Shown here piece after piece: positions 7,631 through 59,161 of a DNA stretch of 64,000 nt. Made by a program: the position numbers and the translations under genes. The notes beneath the pieces are model-generated. The model was given only the letters and a program-made list of their open reading frames with translations. It ran no database searches and was not told the origin of the DNA. Source of the stretch: Lentisphaerae bacterium GWF2_57_35 (GTDB taxonomy: Bacteria > Verrucomicrobiota > Kiritimatiellia > CAIQIC01 > GWF2-57-35); NCBI GenBank assembly GCA_001804865.1, contig MHBK01000061.1:9547-73546 (forward strand), read 5' to 3'. Position 1 is the first letter of the stretch. Each line of letters starts with the position of its first letter.

Positions 7631-8014
7631 ATGCATATTCGTACAGAAATAAAACAGCATATGCGTTCGTTGGATCGTGCCGGCGGTTCTCCTTCGGCCG
7701 ATTTTGTGTTTCCCGGCGCTTTTACGGGTTTCTCGGGGCATTTTCCCGGCCAGCCGGTTTTGCCGGGGGTGTGTTTTATCGAGGCGGCGGTCGCGCTGTT
7801 GGAGGCCTGGCACGGGCGCGAGGCGACGGTGCGGCAGGTCTCCAACGCCAAGTTCAGCCGCATGGTTTTGCCGGATCAGCCGGTCGCGCTCCGTTGCGTG
7901 AAATTCACGAACGACGATCACGGGGGCCGCGCGGCGATCGTGTGCGAACACGATGGCGCCAAGGCGGCGGAATTTGTCCTGGATTACGATCTCGTTCGAG
8001 ATGTGAAATCATGA
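7631..8014 (+). CDS. FabA/FabZ-like hotdog 3-hydroxyacyl-ACP dehydratase (ApeI/ApeP-like)
   Basis: FSGHFPGQPVLPGVCFIEAAVALLEA matches the FabZ HxxxGxxxxP hotdog motif (GHFPxxPVxPGV). Confidence 0.7.
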   Translation: MHIRTEIKQHMRSLDRAGGSPSADFVFPGAFTGFSGHFPGQPVLPGVCFIEAAVALLEAWHGREATVRQVSNAKFSRMVLPDQPVALRCVKFTNDDHGGRAAIVCEHDGAKAAEFVLDYDLVRDVKS

Positions 8015-8496
8015 CGCTATCCCGAAAGAAATTTATTTTTGTTTCGTCGCCGTCGGACCCGCCCCCGATCGTCTGCGAGATTCGCCGCCGCATCTTGTTC
8101 CACGAAGTGGATGTCATGGCGGTCGTCTGGTTCGGCAACTACTGCAAGCTGATCGACGAGGCGGCCTCGCGCCTGAGCCATGTCACGGGCTTGACCTTCG
8201 ACGAGTTCAAACGCGCCGGCATTATGGCGCCGGTGAAGCACATGAACATCGATTACAAGCTCCCCCTGACGATGGGCGAGGAGGTCAGGGTCCGCGCCGC
8301 CATGATCTGGAGCGATGCGCTGCGAATCAACATCGAGTTTACGATGATCAAGGAGGACGGGCGTACGGCCGCCGTCGCCCACATGATCCAACTGTTGATG
8401 GATGCGCATTCGCAGTTGCCCATTTTTGTCGAGCCGCCGTTGTTCGAGGCGTTTCGCGGGCGCTGGCGACGGGGAGAAATTGAGTCGCTTTCATGA
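8011..8496 (+). CDS. 4HBT/YbgC-type acyl-CoA/acyl-ACP thioesterase (ApeK-like)
   Basis: RILFHEVDVMAVVWFGNYCKLIDEAASR is the characteristic hotdog thioesterase N-terminal motif. ATG overlaps the upstream stop (ATGA). Confidence 0.7.
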   Translation: MTLSRKKFIFVSSPSDPPPIVCEIRRRILFHEVDVMAVVWFGNYCKLIDEAASRLSHVTGLTFDEFKRAGIMAPVKHMNIDYKLPLTMGEEVRVRAAMIWSDALRINIEFTMIKEDGRTAAVAHMIQLLMDAHSQLPIFVEPPLFEAFRGRWRRGEIESLS

Positions 8497-10307
8497 ACGT
8501 CGTAGTGGCCGATTACGACATCTTCACAGCGTACGGACACGGCGTCGAATGCTGCTGGAAGGGGTTGATCTCCGGGAAAACGGCGGTCTCCGAAACGGAG
8601 CGCCTGAAGAATCGAAAACCCGGATCTTGGTTTGCGGCGACGAGCGACGAATTGTCGTACGCACACGACGCCTCCCTGGCGGCGCAGATGCTGGAACGCT
8701 TGCTGCCGCCGCTGCACGGACGCCTCCCGCCCGATACGCTCGTGCTGCTGGCCACGACCGCCGGCGAGATCGATCTTCTGGAAAAAAGTTTGCTTAAAGA
8801 AAAGCCGTCCAGGCCTCAGGCGCCCGCGAGTCTTCTGGACGCCGTTACCCGCTGGGTTGGGCTCGAACGCCCGGGACACCTGATCTCGTGCGCCTGCGCC
8901 TCGTCGTCCATGGCGATGACCCTGGCCGCCCATTTAATCTCCCTCGGCCGTGAATCCAGCGTTTTGGTGGCGGCCTGCGACGCGGTGACGGAATTTGTGA
9001 TGGCCGGCTTTGGAACCATGTCGGCCCTTGCGCCTTCGCCGGCGAGACCCTTTCATAAGGACCGCGACGGTTTGAATCTGGGCGATGGCGCCGGCTGGTT
9101 ATGGCTGCTTCGCGAGGATTTCGCTCAAGAACATGCGATCAAGGCAAAAGCCTATCTGACCGGATGGAGCGCGCAGGGCGATTATTACCACATGACGGCG
9201 CCGGACCCCGAGGGGTGCGGACTCAGCCGTGCAATGGATCTCTCTTTGGACATGGCGGGATTGCGTCCGACCCAGGTGGATGCGATTTGCGCGCATGGCA
9301 CGGGAACGCGATATAACGACGACATGGAAATGCACGCCTTCGAACGCGTGCTGGGCCGGCATGCGTGCCCGGTATTTTCGGTCAAAGGCGGCATCGGACA
9401 CACGCTGGGCGCCGCGGGTCTCGTCGAAGCCGCCCTGGCCATCGAGTCGTTGCGTCGCCAACAGGTTCCGCCCAGCATCGGAGCCGATGAGGTGGAGCCT
9501 TTGGGCGGAGGACGGATTTCCAGCAAGGGCCATGATTTATCCAACCCGCGCATCGCCCTGTCCACCAATTCCGGATTTGGAGGAGTCAATACCTCTCTGG
9601 TGGTCGAGCTGCAACGCCCCCAAGAAGTCTCGCCGACCAAAGAGGCCCAGGCCCATTTGATCGCCATGAGCTGGGCCGACGACGAGCAGTGCGGGTTCGT
9701 TCGTCCGGGCTGCGAACCGATGGCGATCTCTCGCGCGCAGGAAAAAGACGGCTCGTTGCTGGCCCGGCCATATAAGAATTGGGGGCGGCTCAGTCCTCTG
9801 TCGAAAAAAATGGTCCACGCCCTGGCGCTGGCCCTGAAAGAAATGGACACGCCTTACAAAATGGGCGGGCCGATTCCGTGGGGGATCGTTAGCGTCAATA
9901 CCTCGGGATGCCAGGCTGACAACGAACGGTATTTCAAGGATTACGCGGAGGCCGGTCGCACCCTAGCCCGCGGGTCGTTGTTTGTCTATACGCTGCCCAC
10001 CAGCCCGATTGCCGAGGCGGCCCTGCATTTTCGCCTGGCCGGTCCGTTGTTTCATGTCGTGCAAGCGCAAGAGGATTACTCGCTCATCCTGAATTGGGCG
10101 GAGAGTTTCTTTGCGGGCGGCGACGCAGAAGGTATGATCGTGGTTTCGACGGAGCAGCCCCGCGTGGTCTGCGGTTTTTTGACGCGAGAAGGGGACGGGA
10201 GGGGCCGCGGTCTCGCGGACCTTGTTCATGGGCCTTTCGCCGCGCGAGAGGCGCCCTTGAATTCCGGAAACGATCGGTTGGAAGCATACTTAAAGCAGTC
10301 TTTATAA
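8493..10307 (+). CDS. Beta-ketoacyl-ACP synthase fused to a C-terminal KS-like domain lacking a catalytic Cys (KS-CLF fusion)
   Basis: N-terminal ~385 aa carry the Cys-His-His triad in canonical motifs (ISCACASS, ICAHGTGT, GIGHTLGAAG). The C-terminal ~215 aa (...IPWGIVSVNTSGCQADNERYF...LPTSPIAEAALHFRLAGPLFHV...) resemble the thiolase-fold CLF-like protein at 39072..39998. ATGA overlap with the thioesterase gene. Confidence 0.75.
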   Translation: MNVVVADYDIFTAYGHGVECCWKGLISGKTAVSETERLKNRKPGSWFAATSDELSYAHDASLAAQMLERLLPPLHGRLPPDTLVLLATTAGEIDLLEKSLLKEKPSRPQAPASLLDAVTRWVGLERPGHLISCACASSSMAMTLAAHLISLGRESSVLVAACDAVTEFVMAGFGTMSALAPSPARPFHKDRDGLNLGDGAGWLWLLREDFAQEHAIKAKAYLTGWSAQGDYYHMTAPDPEGCGLSRAMDLSLDMAGLRPTQVDAICAHGTGTRYNDDMEMHAFERVLGRHACPVFSVKGGIGHTLGAAGLVEAALAIESLRRQQVPPSIGADEVEPLGGGRISSKGHDLSNPRIALSTNSGFGGVNTSLVVELQRPQEVSPTKEAQAHLIAMSWADDEQCGFVRPGCEPMAISRAQEKDGSLLARPYKNWGRLSPLSKKMVHALALALKEMDTPYKMGGPIPWGIVSVNTSGCQADNERYFKDYAEAGRTLARGSLFVYTLPTSPIAEAALHFRLAGPLFHVVQAQEDYSLILNWAESFFAGGDAEGMIVVSTEQPRVVCGFLTREGDGRGRGLADLVHGPFAAREAPLNSGNDRLEAYLKQSL

Positions 10308-10319: not shown

Positions 10320-11567
10320 GTGAAAATTAAACTCGTCTATCCGCGGTGGCCCAAATTGCCCAATCAACCGGAATTTCATCTGCCGCCGCACGGCCCCGTA
10401 GTTTTTGCCGCGGCGATTCCGCGCGAGCATGAGATTTCGTTTTGCGACGAGCATGTGCAAACGCTGGACTTTGCAGAGTCGGCGGATTTGATTTGCATCT
10501 CCTGCATGCTGACCTGTCAGACGGCCCGGGCCTGGGAGATTGCGGACGCGTATCGGGCGCTGGGGAAGAAGGTGGTCCTTGGCGGCATCGCCACGATGCT
10601 CCACGCGGAGGAAAGCGCGCAGCACGCCGATGCGGTCTTCATCGGCGAAGCGGAGGGTCACTTCGAAAAAGTGTTGGCCGATTTCGAACGGGGCGAGTTG
10701 AAAAAGACCTATAATTTCTTTGGCCAGTGGCCGGACCTGCGCGATGTAGGCCCGGCGCGGCGGGACATTTTAAACCGCGAGGCCTACAACTACCGCGGCG
10801 TGCAAATGGTGGATCTGGTCCATTGCTCCCGCGGCTGCCGCTTCGATTGCTTTCCCTGCTGCGTGGCGTATCTCGGCGGGCAGAAGTTTCGGCCGCGGCC
10901 GTTCGAGCGCGTCATCGAGGAGTTGGAGTCGATCCCGAACAACCGCTTGTTCATTGTAGACAATTCGCTCGCGCAGGACGACGACTGGGAGCGGGAACTT
11001 TTCCGGGCGATCGCGCCGCTGAAGAAAAAATGGGTGTCGCATCCCATCCGCGACAAGGACGATATCCTCGATCTGGCGGCCGAGGCGGGCTGCTGGTATG
11101 TGTATCAGTCCGTCATCGACACCAGCGACTTCATGCGTACGCGCATCAAGAGATATCACGATCGGGGCATCGGCGTGGAGGGCACCATCATTCTCGGCTT
11201 GGACGATCACGACGAAGACTACATCAAGCGCCTGGTCGATTTCCTGCTGGAGTGCCGGCTCGACCTGGCCGAGTTCACGGTCGTGACGCCGTTTCCGCAC
11301 ACGCCCATTCGCGCCAAGATGGAGCGGGAAGGCCGCATCTTGCACAACGACTGGAAGCGTTATACAGCCGGCGAAACCGTCTTTAAACCCGCAAAGATGA
11401 GCGTCGACAAGTTGAACGAAATGTACCAGTACGCGTGGGATACTTTTTATCGCGACGAGCCCAAGGAAATCAAGATGGGCAAGCTGTACCGCCGCGTGCT
11501 GGAAAAGGAAATGGCGGACGGCACGTTCCGGTCCCATCGGGCCACGGGTGGCAAATGGGGCCATTGA
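10320..11567 (+). CDS. B12-binding-domain radical SAM enzyme (class B rSAM)
   Basis: N-terminal Rossmann-like cobalamin-binding region (KIKLVYPRW...DLICISCMLT), then the radical SAM Cx3Cx2C motif (CRFDCFPC). GTG start per the track. Confidence 0.75.
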   Translation: MKIKLVYPRWPKLPNQPEFHLPPHGPVVFAAAIPREHEISFCDEHVQTLDFAESADLICISCMLTCQTARAWEIADAYRALGKKVVLGGIATMLHAEESAQHADAVFIGEAEGHFEKVLADFERGELKKTYNFFGQWPDLRDVGPARRDILNREAYNYRGVQMVDLVHCSRGCRFDCFPCCVAYLGGQKFRPRPFERVIEELESIPNNRLFIVDNSLAQDDDWERELFRAIAPLKKKWVSHPIRDKDDILDLAAEAGCWYVYQSVIDTSDFMRTRIKRYHDRGIGVEGTIILGLDDHDEDYIKRLVDFLLECRLDLAEFTVVTPFPHTPIRAKMEREGRILHNDWKRYTAGETVFKPAKMSVDKLNEMYQYAWDTFYRDEPKEIKMGKLYRRVLEKEMADGTFRSHRATGGKWGH

Positions 11568-11589: not shown

Positions 11590-12957
11590 ATGAAGATCGT
11601 CCTGATTTCAGCCAATCAAACGACGTCGCCCTATCCCGTGTTTCCTCTGGGCGCCTCGGTCGTATCCGCCGCCCTGAAAGCGGCCGGACACGAGGTGCTC
11701 TTCCTCGATGGACTGGCCGATGGAGTCTCGCAGGAAGCGGGTCTGGCGCGCCTGCGCGGACACGATCCCCGGCTGGTTTGCCTTTCGCTTCGCAACATCG
11801 ACAACACCAGCAGCGCCCATGAGGAATGCTATCTGGATGCCGTCGCCGCGCTGGTGGCCGGCGTGCGGACGGTCACACAAGCGCCGATCCTGGTGGGCGG
11901 CGCCGGCTTCTCGTTGATGCCTGAGGCCATCCTGAAACGCCTGGGCGCGGACTACGGCATCGCCGGCGAGGGGGAACGGGCGGTTCTGGAGTTTGTCGCG
12001 CGCCTGGAACGGGGGGAATTTCCGCCTACTTCGATCGTCAGGCCTGCGGCGTTTCTGGCCGAACCGGATATCGGCGCCGCCGATTACGGATTGCCCTGCG
12101 TCGATTATTACGTGGAGCAGGGCGGGGGCATGGTAGGCGTGCAAACCAAGCGCGGTTGTCCGCACGCTTGCGGCTATTGTTCGTATCCGGTCCTTGAAGG
12201 CCGCGCCTTGCGCGCGCGCGATCCCAAAGCCGTGGTGCAGGACATCGAACGTCTGATCGGCGAGCGGGGCATGAAATATTTGTATTTTGTCGATGCCGTC
12301 TTCAACGACTCGCAGGGCCTCTATCGGCAGGTCGTCGAGGAAATGCTGGCCCGCCGCATTCGCATTCCCTGGGTTGCCTTTTTCAAACCGACGCCCATCC
12401 CCGACGATGTCCTGGCCATGATGAAGGCCACCGGCTGGGCGGCCGCGGAAGTCGGTTCGGACGGTACGACCGATGAAACCCTGCGCGGGTTGCACAAGCC
12501 CTTTGCCTGGGCAGACGTGGAGGCCTTTCAAGCGGCCTTGAATCGGCATCGGGTGCCCGTCGCGCATTATTTCATCTTCGGCGGCCCCGGCGAGACGCGG
12601 GCGACCGTGCAGGCCGGCATCGACCATGTCCTGCGCTTGTCCTCCGCCGTACGGTTCGTCTATACCGGCATCCGCGTGCTGCCGGAAACGGATATCGAAC
12701 AAATCGCCCGGCGGGAGGGCTTGCTCGCGCCGGGGCAGTCGCTCTTGGAGCCGGTCTATTATTTCTCGCCGCAGATCGAGCGGGGTTGGCTGGAAAATCT
12801 CCTTCGCGAAAAGCTATCGCCCGATCCGCTGTGCTTTTATCCGCCCGAAAACTTTGCCCTCCGGATTGCCGAGTTTCATCGAAAAGGTTTTATGGGGCCG
12901 TTGTGGGAAATGGCGCTGGGGCATCGACCGCCTCGGAGGATTCGATCCCGTGGATAA
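11590..12957 (+). CDS. B12-binding-domain radical SAM enzyme (second, tandem paralog)
   Basis: MKIVLISANQ... B12-binding fold, then RGCPHACGYCSYP (Cx3Cx2C). GGAG RBS 8 nt before ATG 11590. The track ORF starts at an upstream GTG 11548 overlapping the previous gene. Confidence 0.75.
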   Translation: MKIVLISANQTTSPYPVFPLGASVVSAALKAAGHEVLFLDGLADGVSQEAGLARLRGHDPRLVCLSLRNIDNTSSAHEECYLDAVAALVAGVRTVTQAPILVGGAGFSLMPEAILKRLGADYGIAGEGERAVLEFVARLERGEFPPTSIVRPAAFLAEPDIGAADYGLPCVDYYVEQGGGMVGVQTKRGCPHACGYCSYPVLEGRALRARDPKAVVQDIERLIGERGMKYLYFVDAVFNDSQGLYRQVVEEMLARRIRIPWVAFFKPTPIPDDVLAMMKATGWAAAEVGSDGTTDETLRGLHKPFAWADVEAFQAALNRHRVPVAHYFIFGGPGETRATVQAGIDHVLRLSSAVRFVYTGIRVLPETDIEQIARREGLLAPGQSLLEPVYYFSPQIERGWLENLLREKLSPDPLCFYPPENFALRIAEFHRKGFMGPLWEMALGHRPPRRIRSRG

Positions 12958-13849
12958 CAGTCTTCTAAAAAAACGCGGAAACAATCTGGGCTTCTGGTTT
13001 TTCAAGGCCGCCCTCGATCTCTTTGGGCTGCGCGGCGCTTATGTCCTGCTGGGTTTTGTGGCGGGATACTACTGGCTGTTCGACCGCACCGCGCGACGGA
13101 GCGCGCGCGCCTATTTGCAGCGGCGCTTCCGCGGCCGGTCGGGCTGGGCCGCCCAGCGCGACATCTACCGCCTGTTCTACAGCCAGGGCGTTTCGCTCAT
13201 TGACCGTTACGTCATGGCCATGAAGCCCTCCCTGTTTTCCCTCGGCATTGTGAATTACGAAGCAATCCGCCCGCTCGTGGAAGATCCCCGCCAGGGCTTC
13301 ATCCTGCTGACCTCGCACGTGGGCAACTGGCAGGCCGTGATGCTGGCCCTGGGACGCATGAACCGGCGCGTAAATTTATTGATGCGCACCGAGGAAAACG
13401 AGGCGGTGAATCAATACTTGCGCATTCAGGAAGCCGGCGGGCTCATCGATATCGTCTCGCCGGATTTGCCCTTGGGCGGAGTGCTGGAGTTGACCCAGCG
13501 CATCCAGCGCGCCGAAATCGTCGCCATCATGGGCGACCGGGCTTATACCTCCGACACCGCCGAAATCGTTTTCCTGGGCGACCAAGCCGGCTTTCCGCGC
13601 GGCGCTTTTCATCTGGCCTCGGCCTGGGACTGCCCGGTCGTGGTGATGTTTACCGCCAAAACAGGCCCCTCCGCCTACGACGTCGAAATTGCCGGCGTCA
13701 TCCATCCCGGTCAAACTCCCGGCACCGTCAAGCGCGAGCGCATTTCCCATATGGCGCAGCAGTACGCCGACCTGCTTTCCGCCTATGCCGAGCGACATCC
13801 GTATCAGTTCTATCTTTTTCACGACGTCTGGACTCGCCCGGGCGGATAG
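12950..13849 (+). CDS. LpxL/HtrB-family lipid acyltransferase (LPLAT; ApeJ-like)
   Basis: N-terminal hydrophobic segment, then ILLTSHVGNWQ (HX4D-like acyltransferase motif region) and ...IMGDRAYTSD...VFLGD. GTG start overlapping the upstream stop (GTGGATAA). Start uncertain. Confidence 0.6.
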   Translation: MDNSLLKKRGNNLGFWFFKAALDLFGLRGAYVLLGFVAGYYWLFDRTARRSARAYLQRRFRGRSGWAAQRDIYRLFYSQGVSLIDRYVMAMKPSLFSLGIVNYEAIRPLVEDPRQGFILLTSHVGNWQAVMLALGRMNRRVNLLMRTEENEAVNQYLRIQEAGGLIDIVSPDLPLGGVLELTQRIQRAEIVAIMGDRAYTSDTAEIVFLGDQAGFPRGAFHLASAWDCPVVVMFTAKTGPSAYDVEIAGVIHPGQTPGTVKRERISHMAQQYADLLSAYAERHPYQFYLFHDVWTRPGG

Positions 13850-14469: not shown

Positions 14470-14694
14470 AGGTACAGCCTTTGTTGGGTTTCACGCCCGC
14501 GGAGGCGCACTGCGCTTCTCTGGCTGTTCCCAAGCAGGGTAGGCGCCAGTCCTCGTACCTCCAAGGAACCGACGAAAGACGCTTCATCAAGAAAGGTATT
14601 GCCTGCTGCAAAGAAACCTAGTATGCATCTAGCATAAATTTCAAAAAATGAAAAATCAGGAAGTGTTGAACGCATGAAAAGGAGGATGGGTTTG

Positions 14695-46880: not shown

Positions 46881-46882
46881 TC

Positions 46883-47485
46883 ATGTCTCCTCGTTGTGAT
46901 GGATTCCGTCGGCAAATAGGCTATAGAAAGCCCAAGAAGCACTTTCATATAGCGACGGAAGGAAATGAAACAGAGCCTCGCTATTTCGAACTGTTTAAAA
47001 CAACGCGTGAGGATGAGATTCAGCTTAAAATTATTCCTAGCAAACACAAATCTAGACCGTTACAGGTTTTGGAGCATCTAAAACTGCATGTTGCAAAGAA
47101 TGGACGTAAAGGAGATGAAGCTTGGTTGGTCATTGATCGCGATGCTTGGGATGAAGCCGAATTGAACGATGTATTCAGAGAGGCTCAATCTTATGGATAT
47201 GAGGTGGCTCTTAGCAATCCGTGCTTTGAATTATGGCTGTATCTTCACATGAGAGACAATCGGTTGTTTGCAAATAGACATCAATGCCAAGATATGCTCC
47301 AGGATGTTTTAGATGGATATGATCCTAATAAGAAATCTACATATAAAACTGAGTGTCTCTTGCCAAATGTAGATATGGCTATTCAGCGCGCACAAGGATT
47401 AGACCTGCATCCCAATGATTTGTGGCCTCGAAACCAAGCAACTCGGGTATACAAACTAATTCATCGCATACGAAGAAATCTTTAG
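46883..47485 (+). CDS. RloB-like (AbiLii-like) protein, partner of the upstream ATPase
   Basis: HIATEGNETEPRYFELF resembles the RloB-family N-terminal motif (CEGEKTEPNYF). Starts 2 nt after the ATPase stop. ~200 aa. Confidence 0.65.
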   Translation: MSPRCDGFRRQIGYRKPKKHFHIATEGNETEPRYFELFKTTREDEIQLKIIPSKHKSRPLQVLEHLKLHVAKNGRKGDEAWLVIDRDAWDEAELNDVFREAQSYGYEVALSNPCFELWLYLHMRDNRLFANRHQCQDMLQDVLDGYDPNKKSTYKTECLLPNVDMAIQRAQGLDLHPNDLWPRNQATRVYKLIHRIRRNL

Positions 47486-49018: not shown

Positions 49019-49648
49019 CTAATCGGCCTGCAAGCGCGATCTTCGCAACTTCGGTTTAAGAAACAACCGATAACCCGAACTGAAATTTTCAATGACGATG
49101 GGCGTCGCTTCGTCGGAAAACCGGATACGGCTGACTCGCCGGGCGTTTTCGAAAAATTCTTTTTGCAGGAGGGCGCCGGTGAAGGCGTCGAATTCATAGC
49201 GAATCCGTACACCGCAAAGCTCTTGCTCCACGCTCCATCGGCCGCGCCGGCTGATCCAGCCGTCGGGGATGGTCGAGGCGGGCGGCTCCCGTAGAAACTT
49301 CAAGTCCTTCCAGGCCGCGGCGGAAAAGGTCTCCAGGCGTTCTCGGGACTGCGGAATATAAACGGCTTTGTGAACAAGATTCGATCCGCCGCGGGCCTCG
49401 AAGATTTTGATGCCTGCCGGGCTTAAGGCGGCGATGGCCAAGGCCTGTTCTGTTTGCTCAACGTATAAGATCAGGGCGATGGACCGGAACCAGATTTTTA
49501 CGCGGGTGCTGTAAACGGCGCTGAGGTTGGCGGGTTGCTGCACGTAATGGCTCCAAACTTCGGCCGGCGTCATGAGCGGTTTGTCCGGGAGCGTGGAGCA
49601 ACTGCATTCAAGCAGCAGCCATAAAAGCGGTATGAAGCGTTTAAGCAT
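49019..49648 (-). CDS. Putative lipoprotein (possibly DUF3261-like, a family recurrent in aryl-polyene clusters)
   Basis: MLKRFIPLLWLLLECSCS signal/lipobox-like N-terminus. 8-nt overlap with the MMPL gene end. Confidence 0.4.
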   Translation of the reverse strand: MLKRFIPLLWLLLECSCSTLPDKPLMTPAEVWSHYVQQPANLSAVYSTRVKIWFRSIALILYVEQTEQALAIAALSPAGIKIFEARGGSNLVHKAVYIPQSRERLETFSAAAWKDLKFLREPPASTIPDGWISRRGRWSVEQELCGVRIRYEFDAFTGALLQKEFFENARRVSRIRFSDEATPIVIENFSSGYRLFLKPKLRRSRLQAD

Positions 49649-52019: not shown

Positions 52020-52762
52020 GGGCGGACACGAGTCCAAAAAGCAGGATCGATAACAGGATTGAGTTGCGTGTCGAGGAAGGAAATGGAGGTTTCGTCGCCC
52101 GAGGCATCGACGATTTCGATGCGGGAGAGATATTGCGCGTCGTCGCGGAGCCGGAGGACGATGGTGTGGATGTACGAGCGCATGGCCGACGATTCGAGCG
52201 GCGAGAACTCAATGGCGATGGGGTTCGAACCGAGCAGCCGGGCGTTGTAGGTATTCGTCAGGGTCGTAAACGAACCGGACAGCCAGGCGGACATCTGCTC
52301 GTAGATGGCGCCGACGACGGGATTTTTGCCGCGGGACAAGACCTGCACGCGGTCGGTCTCTTCGTCCCATTGGCTGATCTGGTCGCCGTTGACGAGCAAT
52401 TTGTAGCGCATCGGGCTGAAGACTTCCCAGGCAAAATGACCGGCATGATCGGCGGTCATTCGGCCTTCCATGCGCAACGTGTCCCGGAAGAGGGCCATCT
52501 TTTTTTCCTGCACGAACCGGCTGGAGACCGACGTGACCTGGCGCAGGTTTTCCTGCCACGCGGCCAGCGCGCGCGAAAGATCGGTGTTGTCGCTTGCGCC
52601 ATCGGAAAAGGAGGGAACGCTCAATCCGGTAAAAATGAGCAGGACCATCAGTCGCCGAGAAATTAGCCAGAACGCCGCGTCCTTACGGACGCGGCTATGT
52701 AGCCGCCGGCGTAAGCCGGTGGATTCTGGCGGTGCGGCAGGATCTATGAGCGATTGGCTCAT
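52016..52762 (-). CDS. LolA-like outer-membrane lipoprotein carrier family protein (ApeL-like)
   Basis: Signal sequence ...RRLMVLLIFTGLSVPSFS. ~200-aa LolA-fold-sized mature part. ATGA overlap with the ammonia-lyase stop. Confidence 0.55.
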   Translation of the reverse strand: MSQSLIDPAAPPESTGLRRRLHSRVRKDAAFWLISRRLMVLLIFTGLSVPSFSDGASDNTDLSRALAAWQENLRQVTSVSSRFVQEKKMALFRDTLRMEGRMTADHAGHFAWEVFSPMRYKLLVNGDQISQWDEETDRVQVLSRGKNPVVGAIYEQMSAWLSGSFTTLTNTYNARLLGSNPIAIEFSPLESSAMRSYIHTIVLRLRDDAQYLSRIEIVDASGDETSISFLDTQLNPVIDPAFWTRVRP

Positions 52763-54378
52763 GTTTCTTCCGGGGGCAAAAACGCATCGAGGCTGTCGAG
52801 CAGCGGGCTGGAAAAAAGTTGCCGGCGCAGGGCCGTCAAATCGTCGTGAAACACGCGTTGATTGTCGTAGACGCTAAACCCGGGGGCCAGCTCCGCATGA
52901 AAGCGTCCGGTGCCGAAACCCAGGCCGGTCGTTTTTTTCAGAGCCAGCGCCTGCAAGTCGGCCAGGGTTTCCAGGGTCAAAACATGCTTGGCATTGCGCA
53001 CGAGGCGGAAGGTTTTGCGGGCGGCGATGGTGCCCATGCTGACGACATCCTGGTTGGAGGCGTTGCAGGAGATGGAGTGAATGCTCATGGGATTGGCCAG
53101 GTGGCGCGTTTCCGCTGTCGAAGAGGTGGCCAGGTATTGCGCGCCCATGAAGCCCATGACCAGGCCGGCCGGCCCGGCAATGAGATGCTCCGGCAGGCCT
53201 TCGTTCAGGTGTTTATCCAGCAGCTTGTTGATCCGGCGTTCGGAGAGATTGCTCAATGTGCAGATCGCAATGCCCAGCATATCCATAGCAAACGACAGGC
53301 TCTGTCCGTGGAAGTTGCCGCCGTGCAGGATCAAGCCCTCGTCCGGGACAATGACGGGGTTGTCGTTGACGCCGTTTGCCTCGATCTCGACGGTCTTGAT
53401 CGCGGCCGCGATAGTCTCGACGACCGGTGCGAGAATCTGGGCGGTGCAGCGGATGGAATAGACATCCTGCACGTTGATATTGGTTTGATAGACCATCTGC
53501 TCGTTGTCGCGGGCCGAATTGATCCGTTCGTGAATCCGGCTGCGCGGGGTAATGTTCGCCGAGCCTTGGTACAGCCGTCGGATGATCGCTGCGGCTTCGA
53601 CCTGGCCGGGGTGAGGCTTCAGCGCGTGCAAATGGGGATCGAAGGCGTCGTCGATGCCGCCGAAAATTTCCATGACGAAGGCCGCATTGAGGTAGGCCAG
53701 CCGCAGCAGTTTTTCCGCGCCGAAGAGCGCGAACGCCGCCAGGGCGGTCATGGCGGAGGTGCCGTTCATCAGCGCGAGGCCTTCCTTGTAGCTCAGGGCA
53801 ATCGGGTGGAGTCCGGCTTGCGCCAGGGCCGCCCGGGCGGAAACCAGTTGGCCGCGCCGGTACACCTGGCCTTCGCCGATGATCGCCAACGCCGCGTGCG
53901 CGAGATGCACGAGATCCCCCGAAGCGCCCACGCTGCCGCTTTCGGGAATGTAGGGGGCGATGCCCGCGTTGATCATGTCGCGCATGAGTTCCAGCAATTC
54001 GATGCGCACGCCGGAGTAGCCTTTCACCAGGGCATTCAGGCGAAGCGTCAGCGTGGCCAGGGCGATGTAGGGCGGCAGCGGATCGCCCAGTCCGGCCGCG
54101 TGACTGCGAATCAGGTTGGCTTGCAGCGTTTCGATGTCCGCGTCGCGGATGATCTTGTTGCACATCGGGCCGAAGGAGGTGTTGACCCCGTAGATGATTT
54201 TGCCGGTCTTGAGTTCCTGTTCCAGGAAATTCCGGGAGGCGCGGCAGCGGTCGAGGCTTTGCGGAGAAAGAGCTACGCGCTTGTCGCCGACCCCGATGGC
54301 CACGATGTCTTCTATCGTTAAATGCTCGCCGGTCAGGACGACTTCCGGCTTTTCCGATGCTTCGTTTGTATTTTTCAT
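52759..54378 (-). CDS. Aromatic amino acid ammonia-lyase (MIO-dependent HAL/TAL/PAL family)
   Basis: MIO triad Ala-Ser-Gly in GSVGASGDL. Overall close resemblance to HutH, including YGVNTSFG and ...NLIRSHAAGLGDPL (Ser-His at the substrate-selectivity position). Tight operon linkage to the ligase, dehydratase and LolA genes. Confidence 0.85.
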   Translation of the reverse strand: MKNTNEASEKPEVVLTGEHLTIEDIVAIGVGDKRVALSPQSLDRCRASRNFLEQELKTGKIIYGVNTSFGPMCNKIIRDADIETLQANLIRSHAAGLGDPLPPYIALATLTLRLNALVKGYSGVRIELLELMRDMINAGIAPYIPESGSVGASGDLVHLAHAALAIIGEGQVYRRGQLVSARAALAQAGLHPIALSYKEGLALMNGTSAMTALAAFALFGAEKLLRLAYLNAAFVMEIFGGIDDAFDPHLHALKPHPGQVEAAAIIRRLYQGSANITPRSRIHERINSARDNEQMVYQTNINVQDVYSIRCTAQILAPVVETIAAAIKTVEIEANGVNDNPVIVPDEGLILHGGNFHGQSLSFAMDMLGIAICTLSNLSERRINKLLDKHLNEGLPEHLIAGPAGLVMGFMGAQYLATSSTAETRHLANPMSIHSISCNASNQDVVSMGTIAARKTFRLVRNAKHVLTLETLADLQALALKKTTGLGFGTGRFHAELAPGFSVYDNQRVFHDDLTALRRQLFSSPLLDSLDAFLPPEET

Positions 54379-54382: not shown

Positions 54383-54820
54383 TTACTCGTGCCAAAATTT
54401 CAGTTCCGCTTCGGCGAGGCATTCTTCGCCCCGGAGAATCCGGCCTTCCATGATTGCAAAATTCCCGAAATCGGCGGTGCGAATCGCGTGAATGGCCAAG
54501 ACGTCGCCGACGCGCGCGCGGCCTTTCACGGTATATTTTCTCACCCCGACCAACAAGCCCTTCACCGGCCCGCTGCCGGGATGCGGACGGGTCAGCCGTT
54601 CGTGGGCGGCCGCGGCCTGGGCCATCATTTCGATGCCCGATATGGGATCCCAGCTTCCATCGGCCCGGACAAACCAGGCCTCCGCCGGAACGGTCAGGCG
54701 GACGGCGCCGGAGGTTGGGCTGTACGCCAGCACCTCTTCGATGGCCAGCATGGGTTTTTCATGCGGTATAAAAGCGGCTGCCGGAAAAGGGCAGGCCATA
54801 TCATGTGTGCAATCTGTCAT
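54383..54820 (-). CDS. Hotdog-fold dehydratase (ApeI/ApeP-like)
   Basis: ~145 aa hotdog-sized ...PMLAIEEVLAY...GIEMMAQAAAAHE... Start uncertain (alternative ATG 54799). Confidence 0.55.
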   Translation of the reverse strand: MTDCTHDMACPFPAAAFIPHEKPMLAIEEVLAYSPTSGAVRLTVPAEAWFVRADGSWDPISGIEMMAQAAAAHERLTRPHPGSGPVKGLLVGVRKYTVKGRARVGDVLAIHAIRTADFGNFAIMEGRILRGEECLAEAELKFWHE

Positions 54821-56102
54821 GTCTTCGATCCATCCAGCGTACGGGTTTCCGGCTGTCCGGGGGATAAACCAGCGCCCGCATGGTTTCCGGCGTTTCCTCG
54901 ATCACCTCGGGGGCGGCGCGCAGCCGCGACCGGAGCCGGTCGCGAATCGCATCCAGCCCGCTTGCGCCGCCTTTAAATGATGTATGAATCACCAGGGCAT
55001 CGCAACCCTTTTCGACCGTGCGCACTTCCACGCAGTATTCCTGGATGTCTTCGATTTCGTCCAACGCGGCAAAAACGGCGGGCGGATAAAGCGTGGTGCC
55101 CTTGAACTTCAGCATTTGCGATTTGCGCCCGAGAATGGGGCCAAGCCGCACAGAGGTGCGTCCGCAGGCGCACGGTTCGTCGGCCAGGAAGCCGATGTCG
55201 CCGGTTTTGAAGCGCAGCAGCGGCATGGCCTCGACGCCCAGCGGGGTCAGGGTGACTTCGCCCACGGCGCCTGCGGGCAGGGGGCGGTCGTGTTCGTCCA
55301 GTATTTCCACAAGGGCCAATTCCGGCAGCAGATGCCCTCCGCATTGCGCTTCGCATTCGCAAAACGAGGTGACGGTTTCGCTGGAGGCGTAGGTGGAATA
55401 CACGCGCGTCGCCCATGTCTGCTCGATACGGACGGCGGCCGGCAGGGGCTTCCAGGTCTTGTCGCGCAGGGGTTCGCCGATGGCCGCCATCAGGCGTACG
55501 CCGGCGGTGAAGGGGGGAATGCCCATTTGCTCCAGCGCGCCGCCGAGTTTGTTCAGGAAGGACGGCACGCCGACAATCACGGAGGGCTGCCAGCGTTGTA
55601 TGATGTCGGCCAGGCCGCCCAGCGGCGAGTGCCCGGCGCGGATCACGGCGGCGCCGATTTTGCGGAGGCCCAGGTAGTAGGCCAGCCCGGCGACAAAGCA
55701 ACGATCCATCGTGCAGGTCAGCAAGACCACATCGCTGCGGCGGATGCCGCAACCGGAGAGCGCGAGTTGCTCGTTGACGGCCAGCCGGTCGAGATCCGCC
55801 GCCGTATAAGCCACGCGGGTGGGCGTGCCGGTCGTACCCGAGGATTGGACGATGTCCGCGAGTTGAGCCGGCGGGACCGCGAGAAAGTCGTCGTTGTGCA
55901 GGGCGAATTCGCTTTTGGTCGTGACGGGCAGGTCGGTCAGGGCCAGGCCGCCGGCCTTTCGCCCGATATGCCGTTCGGTTCCCATCAGCTTCCGGTAATA
56001 CGGCGAGTGAAGGAGGCAGTGCCGGACGTGCTTATGCAGCAGGCGTTGCTGGACTTTTTCCTGGTCCTGGCGGCCGGCGAACGAGAGCCCTTTTTTCAGC
56101 AT
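54801..56102 (-). CDS. PaaK/F390-synthetase-like adenylate-forming acid-CoA (or -ACP) ligase
   Basis: SSGTTGTPTRVAYT (adenylation motif), ...YASSETV..., and a PaaK-like C-terminal domain. 433 aa. Confidence 0.7.
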   Translation of the reverse strand: MLKKGLSFAGRQDQEKVQQRLLHKHVRHCLLHSPYYRKLMGTERHIGRKAGGLALTDLPVTTKSEFALHNDDFLAVPPAQLADIVQSSGTTGTPTRVAYTAADLDRLAVNEQLALSGCGIRRSDVVLLTCTMDRCFVAGLAYYLGLRKIGAAVIRAGHSPLGGLADIIQRWQPSVIVGVPSFLNKLGGALEQMGIPPFTAGVRLMAAIGEPLRDKTWKPLPAAVRIEQTWATRVYSTYASSETVTSFCECEAQCGGHLLPELALVEILDEHDRPLPAGAVGEVTLTPLGVEAMPLLRFKTGDIGFLADEPCACGRTSVRLGPILGRKSQMLKFKGTTLYPPAVFAALDEIEDIQEYCVEVRTVEKGCDALVIHTSFKGGASGLDAIRDRLRSRLRAAPEVIEETPETMRALVYPPDSRKPVRWMDRRHDRLHT

Positions 56103-56845
56103 GATTCCAGCTCCTTATCCATGACGGCCAATTCCGCCGACATCGCATCCCGGATTCTGTTTTTCAGCGCAAAAGCCGACCAGCCGTTGTACTGCTCCGG
56201 CGTCCATTCCTTCAACTTGTGCAAGAGAATCACGCCGGGCTCCATCCAGAGGGAGCCCCGCCGGGGGATGCGTTCGGTGCCCGCGATGCACAGGGGCACA
56301 ATTGGCGTCTGGGCCTGCATGGCCAGGCGAAAAGCCGCGCTGTAGAAAACGTTCATCTGCCGGTCGCCGGAGCGGGTTCCTTCCGGGAAGAACACGATGG
56401 CCTGGCCCTTCCGCAGCACGGACAGGGCCTGCTCCATCAGGTCCTCGGGCGAAAGGTCGGTTACGCACAGATATCCCGCCCGCTGGGCCATAAAGCCCAG
56501 CAAGGGAATCCGCAGCACCCAGCGCTTGAAGACCTGGATGCCGTCAAAAGACAGCCGCGCCATCAGGAAGGCGTCCGAAGAAGACCGGTGATTGCAGACG
56601 AACACGCAGGCCCCCTTGGCGTAGGCGGGGAAGCGATCCCGGTATTTGATCCGGATGAACGGATAGGGCAGGGCCAGAATAAGGCGGCCGAAAACCTTCA
56701 CGGCCCTTCTGGTCAGATCGGCGTACCGGGCTTTCGGGATTAGCGGCGAACACGCCGCCAAAAGACACGACCCGGGAAGGATCAGAAAAAGAAAAGCCAG
56801 ACTCGTAATGAGCAAAAGCCATGCATTGAACAGCAAATGCATCAT
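56096..56845 (-). CDS. PlsC-type lysophospholipid/1-acyl-glycerol-3-phosphate acyltransferase family protein
   Basis: NHRSSSD (HX4D) and FPEGTRS motifs. N-terminal TM helix. Confidence 0.8.
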   Translation of the reverse strand: MMHLLFNAWLLLITSLAFLFLILPGSCLLAACSPLIPKARYADLTRRAVKVFGRLILALPYPFIRIKYRDRFPAYAKGACVFVCNHRSSSDAFLMARLSFDGIQVFKRWVLRIPLLGFMAQRAGYLCVTDLSPEDLMEQALSVLRKGQAIVFFPEGTRSGDRQMNVFYSAAFRLAMQAQTPIVPLCIAGTERIPRRGSLWMEPGVILLHKLKEWTPEQYNGWSAFALKNRIRDAMSAELAVMDKELESC

Positions 56846-57114
56846 GGGGCAGTGGGGGTGTTCATCTCCTGTTGAACGGCGGCAATGAACGAGTAGATGC
56901 TCTGAAGAGTGCCCAGTTGCCGAATCCGCTCGTCATCCCGAATCGTCACGTCGAATTCCTTTTGCAGCGCGACGATCAAATCCACGGTATCCAGGCTGTC
57001 GAGTCCGAAATCCTGGAAGATATGCGCGGTGGGAACGAGGCGTTCCTGTTCGATCTCAAAGTATTCGACAAGCACTTTGTTGGTTCGTTGAACGATTTCT
57101 GCCTCGGTAAACAT
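56842..57114 (-). CDS. Acyl carrier protein
   Basis: FGLDSLDTVDLIVALQ DSL motif. Internal ATG at 57114 chosen. Confidence 0.8.
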   Translation of the reverse strand: MFTEAEIVQRTNKVLVEYFEIEQERLVPTAHIFQDFGLDSLDTVDLIVALQKEFDVTIRDDERIRQLGTLQSIYSFIAAVQQEMNTPTAP

Positions 57115-57133: not shown

Positions 57134-58369
57134 TTATGTCCGGTCGTTAAAACGATAAAGGAGTGTGGCATTGATGCCGCCAAAAGCAAAGCCGTTCTTT
57201 AAAAGAGTGCGCGTTCGGGCCTCGCGCGTTTCGACGACGTGATCGATGCCCGCGCAATCCGGATCGAGATTTTTCAAGTTGTGCGTGGGGAACAGCCGGT
57301 TGCGCCGCGCCATCTCCACGCAAACAATGCTTTCCAAAGCGCCGGCGGCTCCGAGCGTGTGCCCGAGATGCCCCTTGAAACTGCTGACCGGGGTGCGGCT
57401 TCCAAAGATTGTTCGGATGGCCTCGGCCTCGGCGCAGTCGCCCTGCGGCGTGGCGGTGGCATGCGCGTTGACGTAATCCACTTCGGACGCCTTTACGCCC
57501 GCCTTGTTCAGGGCGGTCGTCATGCATTGAATCATCGCCGCGCTGTTCGACTGGCTGATCTGATCGCCCGTGCTGCACGTGTGGTAGCCGATGACTTCGC
57601 CGAAGATGGGGGCGTTGCGCTTTTGCGCGTGCTCCAGCTCCTCGAGCAGCAAAATGCCGGCGCCTTCGCCGCAGACCAGGCCGTCGCGGTCCCGGTCGAA
57701 AGGCCGGGGCGTTTGCTGCGGGCGGTCGTTGAAGCCCTTGGAGGCGGCGTACAGCACGTCGAACGAGCCCGTCACCATGGGATGAAGCTCTTCCGCGCCG
57801 CCGCAGAGGACCCTATCCTGTTCGCCCCAGCGGATCAAATCGTAGCCCATGCCGATGGATTGCATGCTCGAAGCGCAGGCGGCGGAAGGGCTATAGACCA
57901 TGCCGCGGATTGTAAGATGGTTCGCCACATTCAGCGCCGCCGTGTGCGAGATGCACTGGAAAAACTCCATCGTGGTGACTTTCGAGATGTCGTAATCGGG
58001 GAGCAGTTTTTCGATGGACGAGGCCAGGGTGTTGGTGCTGCCGATGGTGGAGCTGATCACGCAGCCGGTTCGCTCGCTCTGCACTTGCGCATCCGACAAC
58101 CCGGCGGCCGCGATGGCCTGTTTGGCCGCCAGCGCGGAATAGATGCTCATCTTGCTCATCGACCGGCGGTCCTGCCGGGGAATGATTTTTTCGTCCACGC
58201 CCAGGACCGGCGCGGCCACCTTGCTGCGGAGCATCGGATATTTCTGCCATTCCTCGATAATACGCGTCGCGCATTGGCCTGCGGCCACCGCATCGACCAT
58301 GGAGCCCACCTCGTTGCCCAAAGGGGAGATGGCGCCCATGCCGGTAATGACTACTCGTCGGAATTCCAT
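57134..58369 (-). CDS. Beta-ketoacyl-ACP synthase II-like KS
   Basis: SAACASSMQS (Cys), VNAHATATPQGD (His), GHLGHTLGAAG (His). GAGGA RBS before ATG 58369. Confidence 0.9.
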   Translation of the reverse strand: MEFRRVVITGMGAISPLGNEVGSMVDAVAAGQCATRIIEEWQKYPMLRSKVAAPVLGVDEKIIPRQDRRSMSKMSIYSALAAKQAIAAAGLSDAQVQSERTGCVISSTIGSTNTLASSIEKLLPDYDISKVTTMEFFQCISHTAALNVANHLTIRGMVYSPSAACASSMQSIGMGYDLIRWGEQDRVLCGGAEELHPMVTGSFDVLYAASKGFNDRPQQTPRPFDRDRDGLVCGEGAGILLLEELEHAQKRNAPIFGEVIGYHTCSTGDQISQSNSAAMIQCMTTALNKAGVKASEVDYVNAHATATPQGDCAEAEAIRTIFGSRTPVSSFKGHLGHTLGAAGALESIVCVEMARRNRLFPTHNLKNLDPDCAGIDHVVETREARTRTLLKNGFAFGGINATLLYRFNDRT

Positions 58370-58426
58370 CTCGTCCTCGCTGTTGTTCCGCCACGACAAA
58401 TTTCCATCGCTCCGCCGTTCCCTTTC

Positions 58427-59161
58427 TTACGACATGGCCAGTCCGCCGTTGACGCTGAACACCTGGCCTTGGATGTACGACGCTTCGTCGGAGCAAAGAT
58501 AGTTGACCAGCGACGCCACCTCGTCCGCCGTGCCCACCCGTTGCAGCGGGATGTGCGGAACGATGTCCTTCACCGGCAGATGCCCGATCATCTCGGTTTC
58601 GATGAGGCCGGGCGATACGGCATTGACCAGAATGTTCTTCTTTCCAACCTCCCGGGCCAACGCTTTCACGGTGCCGATCAGCCCCGCCTTGGACGCGGCA
58701 TAATTGACCTGTCCCGCCTGCCCGACTTCGCCGGAAACGGACGTGATGGCAACGATCCGTCCGCGCTTTTCCCTCAACATGGGAAAGAGCACCGCCTTGA
58801 CGACATTAAAAAAGCCGTTGAGATTGACGTTGATGACGTCGTTCCATTCGCCGGGCGTCATCCAGACCATCAAATTGTCCTTGGCGATGCCGGCATTGTA
58901 AACCACGGCATGGGGAGGAGTGGCGTCCGCCTTCTGGCTCAGGGCGTCGTGCGTGGCTTGGTAGTCGGCCACGTCGAAAGCGAACAGCTCGCAGTCCCGG
59001 CCCAGTGCATGAATCTCGCCTTGAAGGCTTTGGGCCTCCTCGTGGCGGCTTTTGTACGTCAGCCAGATATCGAAGCCGCTACGGGCCAACCGTAGCGCTA
59101 TGGCTCTTCCAATGCCCCTGCTTCCCCCCGCGACCAGTGCAATACGTCGTAAGTCGTTCAT
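58427..59161 (-). CDS. fabG: 3-oxoacyl-ACP reductase (SDR family, FabG/ApeQ-like)
   Basis: ALVAGGSRGIGRAIA (TGxxxGxG-like), NAG, YxxxK in ...NYAASKAG... Confidence 0.85.
   Translation of the reverse strand: MNDLRRIALVAGGSRGIGRAIALRLARSGFDIWLTYKSRHEEAQSLQGEIHALGRDCELFAFDVADYQATHDALSQKADATPPHAVVYNAGIAKDNLMVWMTPGEWNDVINVNLNGFFNVVKAVLFPMLREKRGRIVAITSVSGEVGQAGQVNYAASKAGLIGTVKALAREVGKKNILVNAVSPGLIETEMIGHLPVKDIVPHIPLQRVGTADEVASLVNYLCSDEASYIQGQVFSVNGGLAMS

Follow-up and report, generated by a model that had tools for sequence, protein, structure and literature searches.

Dialkylresorcinol and ammonia-lyase genes combined with a B12/radical SAM cassette in Lentisphaerae bacterium GWF2_57_35: a candidate aryl-polyene-type pathway distributed over three loci

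In this study, we report the analysis of a 64,000-nucleotide stretch of DNA (the window) from Lentisphaerae bacterium GWF2_57_35 (contig MHBK01000061.1, positions 9,547 to 73,546), in which genes for an acyl-chain-building pathway lie in three groups, at 7.6-13.8 kb (locus 1), 31.2-42.1 kb (locus 2) and 47.5-59.2 kb (locus 3). We consider it probable, at about 0.6, that the three loci encode one highly reducing, type II polyketide synthase (PKS)-like pathway of the radical S-adenosylmethionine (SAM)-bearing, 'ladderane-type' branch of aryl-polyene (APE) biosynthesis, equipped with a complete Azoarcus/flexirubin-type dialkylresorcinol (DAR), or dar, module and a FlxA-like ammonia-lyase. The gene set is a distant relative of the flexirubin and arcuflavin clusters within an uncharacterised radical-SAM-bearing, APE-like subfamily of anaerobes.

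Open reading frames (ORFs) were called, about 50 of those in the window were scanned with Pfam and NCBIfam profiles, and start codons were assigned for the LpxL-type acyltransferase, the ABC-2 permease and ACP3. For the comparison with relatives, 18 homologues of rSAMb (a radical SAM protein of locus 1) were aligned and one genome per species was scanned; 80 loci were kept, the window's own genome not being among them. Synteny was counted in the 39 species-representative genome loci with full 10-kb flanks around rSAMb, and a reverse search was started from DarH of locus 2. A preliminary description of the window had listed most of the pathway genes, and each component listed there was recovered at or near its expected position by Pfam and NCBIfam; it had overlooked the three B12-binding radical SAM genes, DarG, DarH, the DUF3261 protein and the class I methyltransferase.

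Locus 1 is a compact cassette of six genes:
7631-8014, plus strand: ApeI/FabA-like dehydratase, gene 1 of the cassette (Pfam FabA, 31 bits; ApeI-like, 22.3 bits against a gathering threshold of 28.5)
8011-8496, plus strand: 4HBT/YbgC-type thioesterase (Pfam 4HBT_2, 61 bits)
8493-10307, plus strand: KS611, a ketosynthase (KS) fused to a C-terminal domain resembling a chain length factor (CLF), 604 residues (Pfam KS domains; Cys-His-His intact)
10320-11567, plus strand: rSAMa, a divergent B12-domain radical SAM protein (weak Pfam/NCBIfam matches; CxxxCxxC at residue 173)
11590-12957, plus strand: rSAMb, TIGR04072 'lipid biosynthesis B12-binding/radical SAM protein' (530 bits against a cut-off of 360)
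12950-13849, plus strand: LpxL-type acyltransferase (Pfam Lip_A_acyltrans)

The start codon of the thioesterase overlaps the stop codon of the dehydratase. An ORF at 7627-8496 was rejected as a single 289-residue protein, since it resolves into the thioesterase and the dehydratase, the latter in a different frame. The C-terminal 232 residues of KS611 matched the CLF profile with an hhalign probability of 96.6% (E 5.5e-10), a relationship visible by profile-profile comparison only; BLASTP against CLF and phmmer against the PDB were both empty. Because this part matches the CLF profile and also stands as a separate gene in a Brocadiia metagenome-assembled genome (MAG; locus L175, 6861-8748, with a KS of 375 residues and a CLF-like protein of 234), KS611 was taken to be a fused KS-CLF. 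The most conserved gene of the cassette was rSAMa, with a median identity of 68% and a maximum of 92% across phyla, against 45% for rSAMb; it matched Pfam Radical_SAM and B12-binding only weakly, and its sole PDB relative was the diol-dehydratase AprD4. The CxxxCxxC motif was present in all three radical SAM proteins of the window, and rSAMb and rSAMc (locus 3) distantly resembled B12-dependent methyltransferase and cyclase families. The literature on DVU_1553, kuste3343 and DarG/DarH yielded no functional study of the radical SAM cassette.

Locus 2 contains the dar module, preceded by a methyltransferase gene and followed by a second set of chain-building genes with acyl carrier proteins (ACPs):
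31206-32264, plus strand: class I SAM methyltransferase (Methyltransf_23, 77 bits)
32961-33929, minus strand: DarA, DAR aromatase family (homologues of 43-51% identity named 'dialkylresorcinol condensing enzyme')
34116-35261, plus strand: DarB, a ketoacyl-ACP synthase III (KAS III) and StlD/DarB ketosynthase-cyclase (NF005293, 501 bits against 450; resorcinol_DarB, 419 against 550)
35276-35686, plus strand: DarG-family protein, equivalent of Azoarcus darD (DarG_fam, 112 bits against 70; flexirubin_DarG, 98 against 170)
35683-36711, plus strand: DarH, a BtrH-related acyltransferase, equivalent of Azoarcus darE (BtrH_N and DUF4872; NF053550, 413 bits against 300)
36708-37469, plus strand: ABC transporter ATPase (ABC_tran, 100 bits)
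37466-38668, plus strand: ABC-2 permease (ABC2_membrane_3, 113 bits)
38658-38933, plus strand: ACP1, darC-like (PP-binding domain; PRK09184, 57 bits)
39072-39998, minus strand: CLF-like protein (Ketoacyl-synt_2; in the alignment, Gln at the catalytic Cys position and the second thiolase half absent)
40007-41179, minus strand: KS2 ketosynthase (N- and C-terminal KS domains; Cys-His-His intact)
41210-41482, minus strand: ACP2 (PP-binding domain; PRK09184, 78 bits against 70)

Public records start the methyltransferase at 31104, not at 31206. The darA gene adjoins darB in divergent orientation, and this divergent DarA/DarB-G-H-ABC layout is kept in the close relative L090 (73-77% identity). DarA was 40% identical to a gene upstream of a KAS III and an ACP on a Burkholderia pseudomallei plasmid, a darABC-like triad found by tblastn against plasmids, and 32% identical to the gene upstream of the genuine DarB in L111, a metagenome locus (GC content 0.34) that holds a genuine flexirubin cluster. 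The NCBIfam scan of DarA was empty; the DarA of L111 likewise drew no match, so that the silence reflects the lack of a DarA model and not non-membership. With DarH as the query, tblastn against plasmids returned just distant and uninformative BtrH-domain proteins (about 27% identity). The best PDB match of KS2 was Iga11, the ketosynthase of a highly reducing type II PKS (6kxd, 213 bits). An ORF at 32174-32914 appears spurious: its translation is Arg/Ser-rich and of low complexity, and it has neither a family nor a homologue in any of the loci.

Locus 3 lies entirely on the minus strand and combines export, starter-unit and elongation genes:
47523-49007, minus strand: rSAMc, B12-binding radical SAM protein (Radical_SAM, 77 bits; B12-binding, 72 bits)
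49019-49648, minus strand: DUF3261 protein (PF11659)
49641-52037, minus strand: MMPL/RND-type exporter (MMPL, 20.5 bits, equal to the gathering cut-off of 20.5; weak HpnN/HAE3 matches)
52016-52762, minus strand: LolA-like carrier (LolA, 49 bits; LolA2_flexi, 88 against 125)
52759-54378, minus strand: FlxA-like aromatic amino-acid ammonia-lyase of the 4-methylideneimidazole-5-one (MIO) type (Lyase_aromatic, 556 bits; FlxA model NF053541, 451 against 700)
54383-54820, minus strand: ApeP-like dehydratase (PF22817, 21.3 bits against a gathering threshold of 27)
54801-56102, minus strand: PaaK/FlxY-like aryl-acid ligase (NF053551, 424 bits against 520; next family, 155 bits)
56096-56845, minus strand: PlsC-type acyltransferase (Acyltransferase, 78 bits)
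56842-57114, minus strand: ACP3 (PP-binding domain)
57134-58399, minus strand: KS3, ApeR-type ketosynthase (PRK09116, 416 bits against 470; Cys-His-His intact)
58427-59161, minus strand: FabG/FlxB-like ketoreductase (adh_short_C2, 184 bits; FlxB, 288 against 340; FabG model NF004200, 294 against 273)

The lyase carries the MIO-forming Ala-Ser-Gly at residue 152, an 'SH' like that of histidine ammonia-lyase (HAL) within LIRSHAAG, and NQDVVSMG as its second motif, which we take to be of the tyrosine/phenylalanine ammonia-lyase kind. The top PDB matches of KS3 were AbApeR (7F27, 318 bits) and PpApeR (4EWG, 317 bits), both of them ApeR structures (PMC8358021), and FabB-type proteins reached at most 263 bits. 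The four KS/CLF-type proteins counted in the preliminary description resolve into three ketosynthases with Cys-His-His and one truncated CLF.

The evidence that the loci belong together comes from their arrangement in relatives. The rSAMb family was found in at least 590 species (one genome per species), its carriers including Verrucomicrobiota/Kiritimatiellales, Victivallales, Nitrospirota, Omnitrophota, Desulfobacterota, Elusimicrobia, Planctomycetes, Spirochaetales and Hydrogenedentota. Homologues of the six locus 1 genes occurred in 35-39 of the 39 full-flank loci (dehydratase 37, thioesterase 35, LpxL-type acyltransferase 39) and homologues of ACP2, KS2 and CLF in 35-38 (KS2 38), while LolA was present in 34, the ApeP-like dehydratase in 32, the MMPL exporter in 22 and the FlxY-like ligase in 16. 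Contiguous examples were L001/L008 and L175. The order in L001, from a Verrucomicrobiota MAG, is PlsC, ligase, dehydratase, thioesterase, KS611, rSAMa, rSAMb and LpxL, followed further along by CLF, KS, ACP, an intervening gene, rSAMc, DUF3261 and MMPL. That in L175 is ligase, a radical SAM-ApeP-dehydratase fusion, LolA, MMPL, an intervening gene, dehydratase, thioesterase, KS, an intervening gene, rSAMa, rSAMb, ACP, KS and CLF. Because the genes are contiguous in L001 and L175, locus 1, the KS2/CLF/ACP2 end of locus 2 and locus 3 are parts of one conserved unit, as the preliminary description had supposed in treating the three loci as one set. The fusion in L175 (639-2123) joins a radical SAM/SPASM protein to an ApeP-like dehydratase domain and occupies, relative to the ligase and LolA, the position of the ApeP-like gene in the window.

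The dar module is tied to the cassette by the reverse search, which recovered a recurrent radical-SAM-bearing dar subtype in several lineages. In Desulfuromonas versatilis (L087) the order is rSAMa, rSAMb, rSAMc, a glycosyltransferase/DUF2062 gene, LpxL, ACP, KS, CLF, PagL, an intervening gene, DarG, DarH, ABC, ABC2 and ACP, with DarB and a radical SAM gene further along, and the metagenome loci L118, L152 and L154 agree with it over the stretches that they cover. Copies of rSAMc at 62-67% identity lie inside these four Dar-bearing clusters. A Lentisphaerae MAG (L089) has DarB-G-H-ABC-ABC2-ACP beside LpxL-rSAMb-rSAMa, and Desulfonema limicola (L088) has a radical SAM gene, ligase, lyase, DarG, DarH, ACP, KS and CLF in that order. 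A further locus (L109) combines a lyase 65% identical to that of the window with FlxY, DarG/H, ABC, ACP, CLF, a radical SAM gene and DarB, and another (L170) reads rSAMc-like gene, DarA, DarB, DarG, DarH. As cultured Desulfuromonadales and Desulfonema carry the pattern, it is not unique to the window.

The pathway proposed here is assigned step by step from homology. The MIO lyase would convert tyrosine, or possibly phenylalanine, into a cinnamic-type acid (4-coumarate or cinnamate), and the FlxY-like ligase would activate this aryl acid. Elongation with malonyl-ACP on the ACPs is predicted for the ApeR-like KS3, for KS2 with CLF and for the fused KS611, with FabG and the ApeI/ApeP-like dehydratases processing every round to give a polyenoyl-ACP. 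DarB would join two fatty-acyl intermediates, and DarA would aromatise the product to a dialkylresorcinol, which DarH, a BtrH-like and ACP-dependent acyltransferase, probably esterifies together with DarG, using the polyene acyl group. By analogy with APE lipids, the thioesterase and the LpxL- and PlsC-type acyltransferases may serve product release or lipid anchoring, and the ABC, MMPL, LolA and DUF3261 proteins would carry the product to the outer membrane. Tailoring of the chain is a candidate role for the three B12/radical SAM enzymes and the methyltransferase, with C-methylation or other oxygen-independent radical chemistry appearing likely. On this model a formerly compact cluster would have been split later, by insertion of the giant adhesin gene and of the AbiL island.

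Several observations weigh against a single pathway of this kind. Within 10 kb of rSAMb, dar genes were found in none of the 39 full-flank loci and a lyase homologue in one; the radical SAM core therefore needs neither the dar genes nor the tyrosine-derived part, and the coupling could be loose. DarA, the lyase and all three radical SAM genes occurred together in no fetched locus, a count from which the 10-kb flank limit may hide cases. Among the flexirubin equivalog models only DarH was passed by the window proteins, the Ape-specific ApeI-like and ApeP-like profiles stayed below their gathering thresholds, and the lyase scored slightly higher on histidine ammonia-lyase models (499 and 475 bits) than on FlxA (451 bits). 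The insertions, moreover, may have broken co-transcription.

The first of these observations also speaks for a competing explanation that we regard as unlikely, namely that two independent pathways are neighbours: a flexirubin/arcuflavin-like APE and DAR pathway (lyase, FlxY, KS3, FabG and dar module), and a TIGR04072-type radical SAM lipid pathway (locus 1, KS2/CLF/ACP2 and rSAMc) with an unrelated product, a modified fatty acid or a polyunsaturated lipid. This separation is likewise in line with genuine flexirubin clusters, of which L111 has no radical SAM gene in the 21 kb examined, and Rattray et al. tied a homologous Desulfotalea cluster to polyunsaturated hydrocarbons (PMC2649909). Against two pathways, LolA, MMPL, the ApeP-like dehydratase and the FlxY-like ligase accompany the radical SAM cassette in relatives, and the dar module is interleaved with radical SAM genes in several lineages. 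By gene order, the KS-CLF-ACP trio accompanying the cassette corresponds to Azoarcus darJ/darK/darC. Two polyketide lines would also have to share their ketoreductase and dehydratases, since the window has one ketoreductase and one ApeI/ApeP-like pair.

It is also improbable, in our judgement, that the product is a stilbene-like or aryl-substituted resorcinol or cyclohexanedione, as made by StlA-E of Photorhabdus, in which case the extended aryl-enoyl thioester would itself be the substrate of DarB/StlD and would not be esterified to a separate DAR. The best above-threshold family of DarB is indeed 'StlD/DarB', and a lyase, a ligase, a KAS III cyclase and an aromatase occur together in the manner of the Stl pathway. 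Most radical-SAM-type relatives moreover have no DarA, which would leave cyclohexanediones. The stilbene of this pathway has been cited as a DAR (PMC3949708). However, the window also has DarG and the BtrH-like DarH, as do the ester-forming clusters for flexirubin and arcuflavin, and three KS with a CLF suggest long chains rather than one extension.

Ladderane lipids, the reading given by the antiSMASH label and by the original context of TIGR04072, would agree with rSAMb passing the TIGR04072 equivalog cut-off and with the similar gene content of the candidate operon in Kuenenia. We hold this to be very improbable: the rSAMb family extends over many non-anammox phyla, whereas ladderanes are known solely from anammox Planctomycetes, where gene function is itself unproven (PMC9902471, PMC13459092, PMC4790861), and the host is a Lentisphaerae MAG. 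Ordinary type II fatty acid synthase (FAS II) or lipid A acylation genes, to which FabG passing a generic FabG model (294 against 273 bits) and the LpxL- and PlsC-type domains might point, can be dismissed, as the three KS score 346, 252 and 200 bits on the FabF equivalog TIGR03150 (cut-off 494) and the ApeI-like dehydratase 33 bits on the FabZ equivalog TIGR01750 (cut-off 155), scores so far below the cut-offs that the ordinary FAS reading is refuted, while the ApeP-like dehydratase has no NCBIfam match, the genuine FlxB of L111 passes the same FabG model, and the lyase, DarA/B/G/H, CLF and radical SAM proteins play no role in FAS II. The profiles thus bear out the view of the preliminary description that this is a type-II-PKS-like APE and DAR toolkit, and did not assign the KS, ACP and dehydratase genes to housekeeping FAS.

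The three-locus layout, with a giant gene and a defence-island zone in between, was also as previously described. An identical stretch, in which giant gene, dar module and island follow one another in unchanged order, was found in three independent assemblies, so that the split layout is real and not an assembly artefact. In the 80.7-kb contig of Lentisphaerae bacterium GWF2_57_35, rSAMb, DarH and DarA are 100% identical to A2X46_17760, A2X46_17805 and A2X46_17790; the identical sequence has been deposited under two taxonomic labels, this one and the third-party annotation (TPA) 'Verrucomicrobia bacterium' (GCA_003489865.1). The GC content was 0.595 for the whole window and 0.58-0.61 for the three loci, below the approximately 63% given earlier.

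Four elements between or within the loci lie outside the set of pathway genes:
14674-30882, plus strand: giant surface-repeat protein, 5402 residues, outside the pathway (CARDB, PKD, Big_5 and CarboxypepD_reg repeats)
30967-31049, plus strand: 83-nucleotide triple-hairpin repeat, copy 1, upstream of the methyltransferase gene
33991-34073, plus strand: 83-nucleotide triple-hairpin repeat, copy 2, upstream of darB
42303-47485, no strand assigned: low-GC island, outside the pathway (cyclic nucleotide monophosphate (cNMP)-binding protein, PDC-S02 remnant, Zn-ribbon protein, unknown gene, AbiLi/AbiLii)

At the sites of the giant gene and of the island, relatives carry no gene or small ones only: the giant gene is absent at the corresponding position in relatives, and the position of the island in L001 is taken by a single 149-residue gene. 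The GC content of the island is 0.50, and PADLOC scored AbiLi at 277 bits, AbiLii at 83 and PDC-S02 at 227, the AbiLi/AbiLii abortive-infection pair lying at 45480-47485. The DUF1016/PDC-S02 ORF (42523-43746) is omitted from public gene calls and overlaps its neighbour, and is therefore probably a remnant. The giant gene contains many CARDB and CarboxypepD_reg domains and internal 51-nucleotide repeats about 1.3 kb apart.

The copies of the 83-nucleotide direct repeat are 90% identical; each comprises three successive hairpins of 7-8 bp and closely precedes a plus-strand gene. A near-consensus sigma-70 promoter, TTGACA-16-TAAAAT (33934-33961), predicted from the sequence, would place copy 2 in the darB leader. 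The repeat was not found in the 171 loci examined, the close relative L090 included. At gathering scores, Rfam matched no family in the whole window, the 83-nucleotide element likewise being unmatched; an ncS16 match in a permissive Rfam scan of 30880-34130 was sub-threshold and on the opposite strand, and was taken as chance. A second repeat, of 48 nucleotides and 90% identity and with a palindrome, occurs at 866-913 and 32511-32558, the latter copy in the 700-bp gap between the methyltransferase gene and darA. The region immediately before locus 1 holds, on the minus strand, a gene for shikimate kinase (4347-4874) and one of the Methyltransf_32 family (5295-6497); these neighbours may be linked to the supply of aromatic precursors.

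A complete dar module and a FlxA/FlxY-type starter pair joined to a TIGR04072 cassette are undescribed in the searchable literature, as is a link of the 'ladderane-type' clusters of anaerobes to an APE/resorcinol lipid pathway. The 'ladderane' calls that genome mining produces in non-anammox anaerobes have been without a chemical explanation since 2009. The window, together with the contiguous clusters of the cultured Desulfuromonas versatilis and Desulfonema limicola, unites parts of characterised type (FlxA/FlxY-like, DarA/B, ApeR-like KS) with the B12/radical SAM cassette. We tentatively suggest that the 'ladderane-type' B12/radical SAM lipid clusters of anaerobes (Nitrospirota, Omnitrophota, Desulfobacterota, the Planctomycetes-Verrucomicrobia-Chlamydiae (PVC) group, Elusimicrobia and others) might be an oxygen-independent branch of APE/DAR pigment-lipid biosynthesis, though the odds are somewhat against so broad a generalisation. 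If it held, the radical SAM enzymes would add polyene or alkyl-chain modifications to which nothing in flexirubin, in arcuflavin or in APE lipids corresponds. Variants like the window keep the lyase, the FlxY-like ligase and DarA/B/G/H, and would therefore reveal the chemical class of the whole family. They allow the product to be guessed as a polyene/resorcinol lipid, membrane-bound and with radical SAM tailoring, and open a route to the function of the very conserved rSAMa.

Among known systems, the highly reducing type II PKSs (ishigamide Iga11/Iga12; cispentacin AmcF/AmcG) share with the window Iga11, the best solved relative of KS2. Cispentacin AmcF is among the top NCBIfam families for KS2 and KS611, yet at 238 and 200 bits against a cut-off of 325, and the cluster context of these PKSs is unrelated.

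The TIGR04072, or 'ladderane-type', clusters (Kuenenia kuste3335-3352, Desulfotalea DP185x, Geobacter, Pelobacter) share rSAMb at the equivalog level, together with the dehydratase-thioesterase-KS-rSAMa-rSAMb-acyltransferase and ACP-KS-CLF blocks, a 'phenylacetyl-CoA ligase' and a large membrane protein, and are syntenic across phyla. To these the window adds DarA/B/G/H, the ABC pair and the ammonia-lyase, whereas it has no phytoene-desaturase-like gene. Homologous B12/radical SAM genes have been described in the Kuenenia candidate ladderane operon and in non-anammox deltaproteobacteria (PMC2649909), and antiSMASH places the 'ladderane' label on similar clusters in many non-anammox phyla (PMC9902471). 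When the Kuenenia genes were expressed heterologously, no product was obtained (PMC4790861), and in reviews up to 2025-26 the role of the ladderane-associated B12-dependent radical SAM enzyme is only proposed and the ring-forming enzymes are unknown (PMC13459092).

The ape core set of bioRxiv 2020.12.19.423268 (KS apeO/R, CLF apeC, ACPs, dehydratases apeI/P, ketoreductase apeQ and transporter apeM) is represented in the window in all its roles. Features in common with the ape clusters of E. coli CFT073, Xenorhabdus doucetiae and Acinetobacter baumannii are an ApeR-type KS (KS3), a KS with a truncated CLF, multiple ACPs, the ApeI/ApeP-like pair, a ketoreductase, an adenylating ligase, a thioesterase, an LPLAT-type acyltransferase, LolA, MMPL and DUF3261. 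The window differs in having no glycosyltransferase, in the additional dar module, lyase and radical SAM genes, and in KS2 and KS611, neither of which is closer to ApeO than to FabF. In Lentisphaerae MAGs, APE calls by antiSMASH have been reported (PMC9476954).

With the flexirubin clusters of Chitinophaga pinensis and Flavobacterium johnsoniae the window shares the FlxA-like MIO lyase with its HAL-like 'SH', the FlxY-like ligase, the FabG/FlxB-like reductase, DarA, DarB, DarG, DarH, the ABC pair, LolA, an exporter, acyltransferases and a thioesterase. On the NCBIfam models, the genuine cluster L111 and the window scored as follows:
FlxA: cut-off 700, L111 903, window 451 bits
FlxB: cut-off 340, L111 417, window 288 bits
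resorcinol_DarB: cut-off 550, L111 675, window 419 bits
flexirubin_DarG: cut-off 170, L111 211, window 98 bits
DarH: cut-off 300, L111 522, window 413 bits
FlxY: cut-off 520, window 424 bits
LolA2_flexi: cut-off 125, window 88 bits

The flexirubin models were nevertheless the top or near-top family for the window proteins, FlxY leading by about 270 bits. The designation 'flexirubin-type' in the preliminary description therefore holds at the family level and fails at the equivalog level, where FlxA, FlxY, FlxB and resorcinol_DarB lie below their cut-offs. Identity between the window and L111 is only 32-47%, L111 is without the three B12/radical SAM genes and the fused KS-CLF, and the flexirubin hosts are aerobic Bacteroidota, whereas the window comes from an uncultured Lentisphaerae MAG and its cluster-bearing relatives largely from anaerobic lineages. 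In C. pinensis, deamination by FlxA and activation by FlxY have been shown; FlxA has a mixed motif pattern like that of the window lyase, including the HAL-like motif 1, yet is a tyrosine ammonia-lyase (PMC3992019).

The arcuflavin (xanthomonadin-DAR hybrid) system of Azoarcus sp. BH72 has a high-GC genome as its background. Its dar order, darA-B-D-E-F-I-C-J-K, is the same as that of the window at 32961-41482, with KS, CLF and ACP2 inverted in the window. The Azoarcus starter is 3-hydroxybenzoate, supplied by the XanB2 chorismatase and not by an ammonia-lyase; among the approximately 50 window ORFs scanned there was no match to a XanB2-type chorismatase, the MIO lyase being present instead. 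The Azoarcus arc/dar tables also contain no radical SAM genes; in Table 1, darD is listed as hypothetical and darE as BtrH-like (PMC3949708). High GC content, a non-Bacteroidetes host and non-contiguity, which the preliminary description had treated as unusual, have published precedents, since the arcuflavin genes lie in three unlinked loci of Azoarcus BH72, a non-Bacteroidetes (PMC3949708), and those for flexirubin in C. pinensis are found at two places, Cpin_1853-1877 and Cpin_6850-6851 (PMC3992019). An APE/DAR cluster distributed over several loci of a high-GC, non-Bacteroidetes genome is thus by itself not new, and comparable polyene-DAR sets have been predicted in Variovorax, Dechloromonas and Sideroxydans (PMC3949708).

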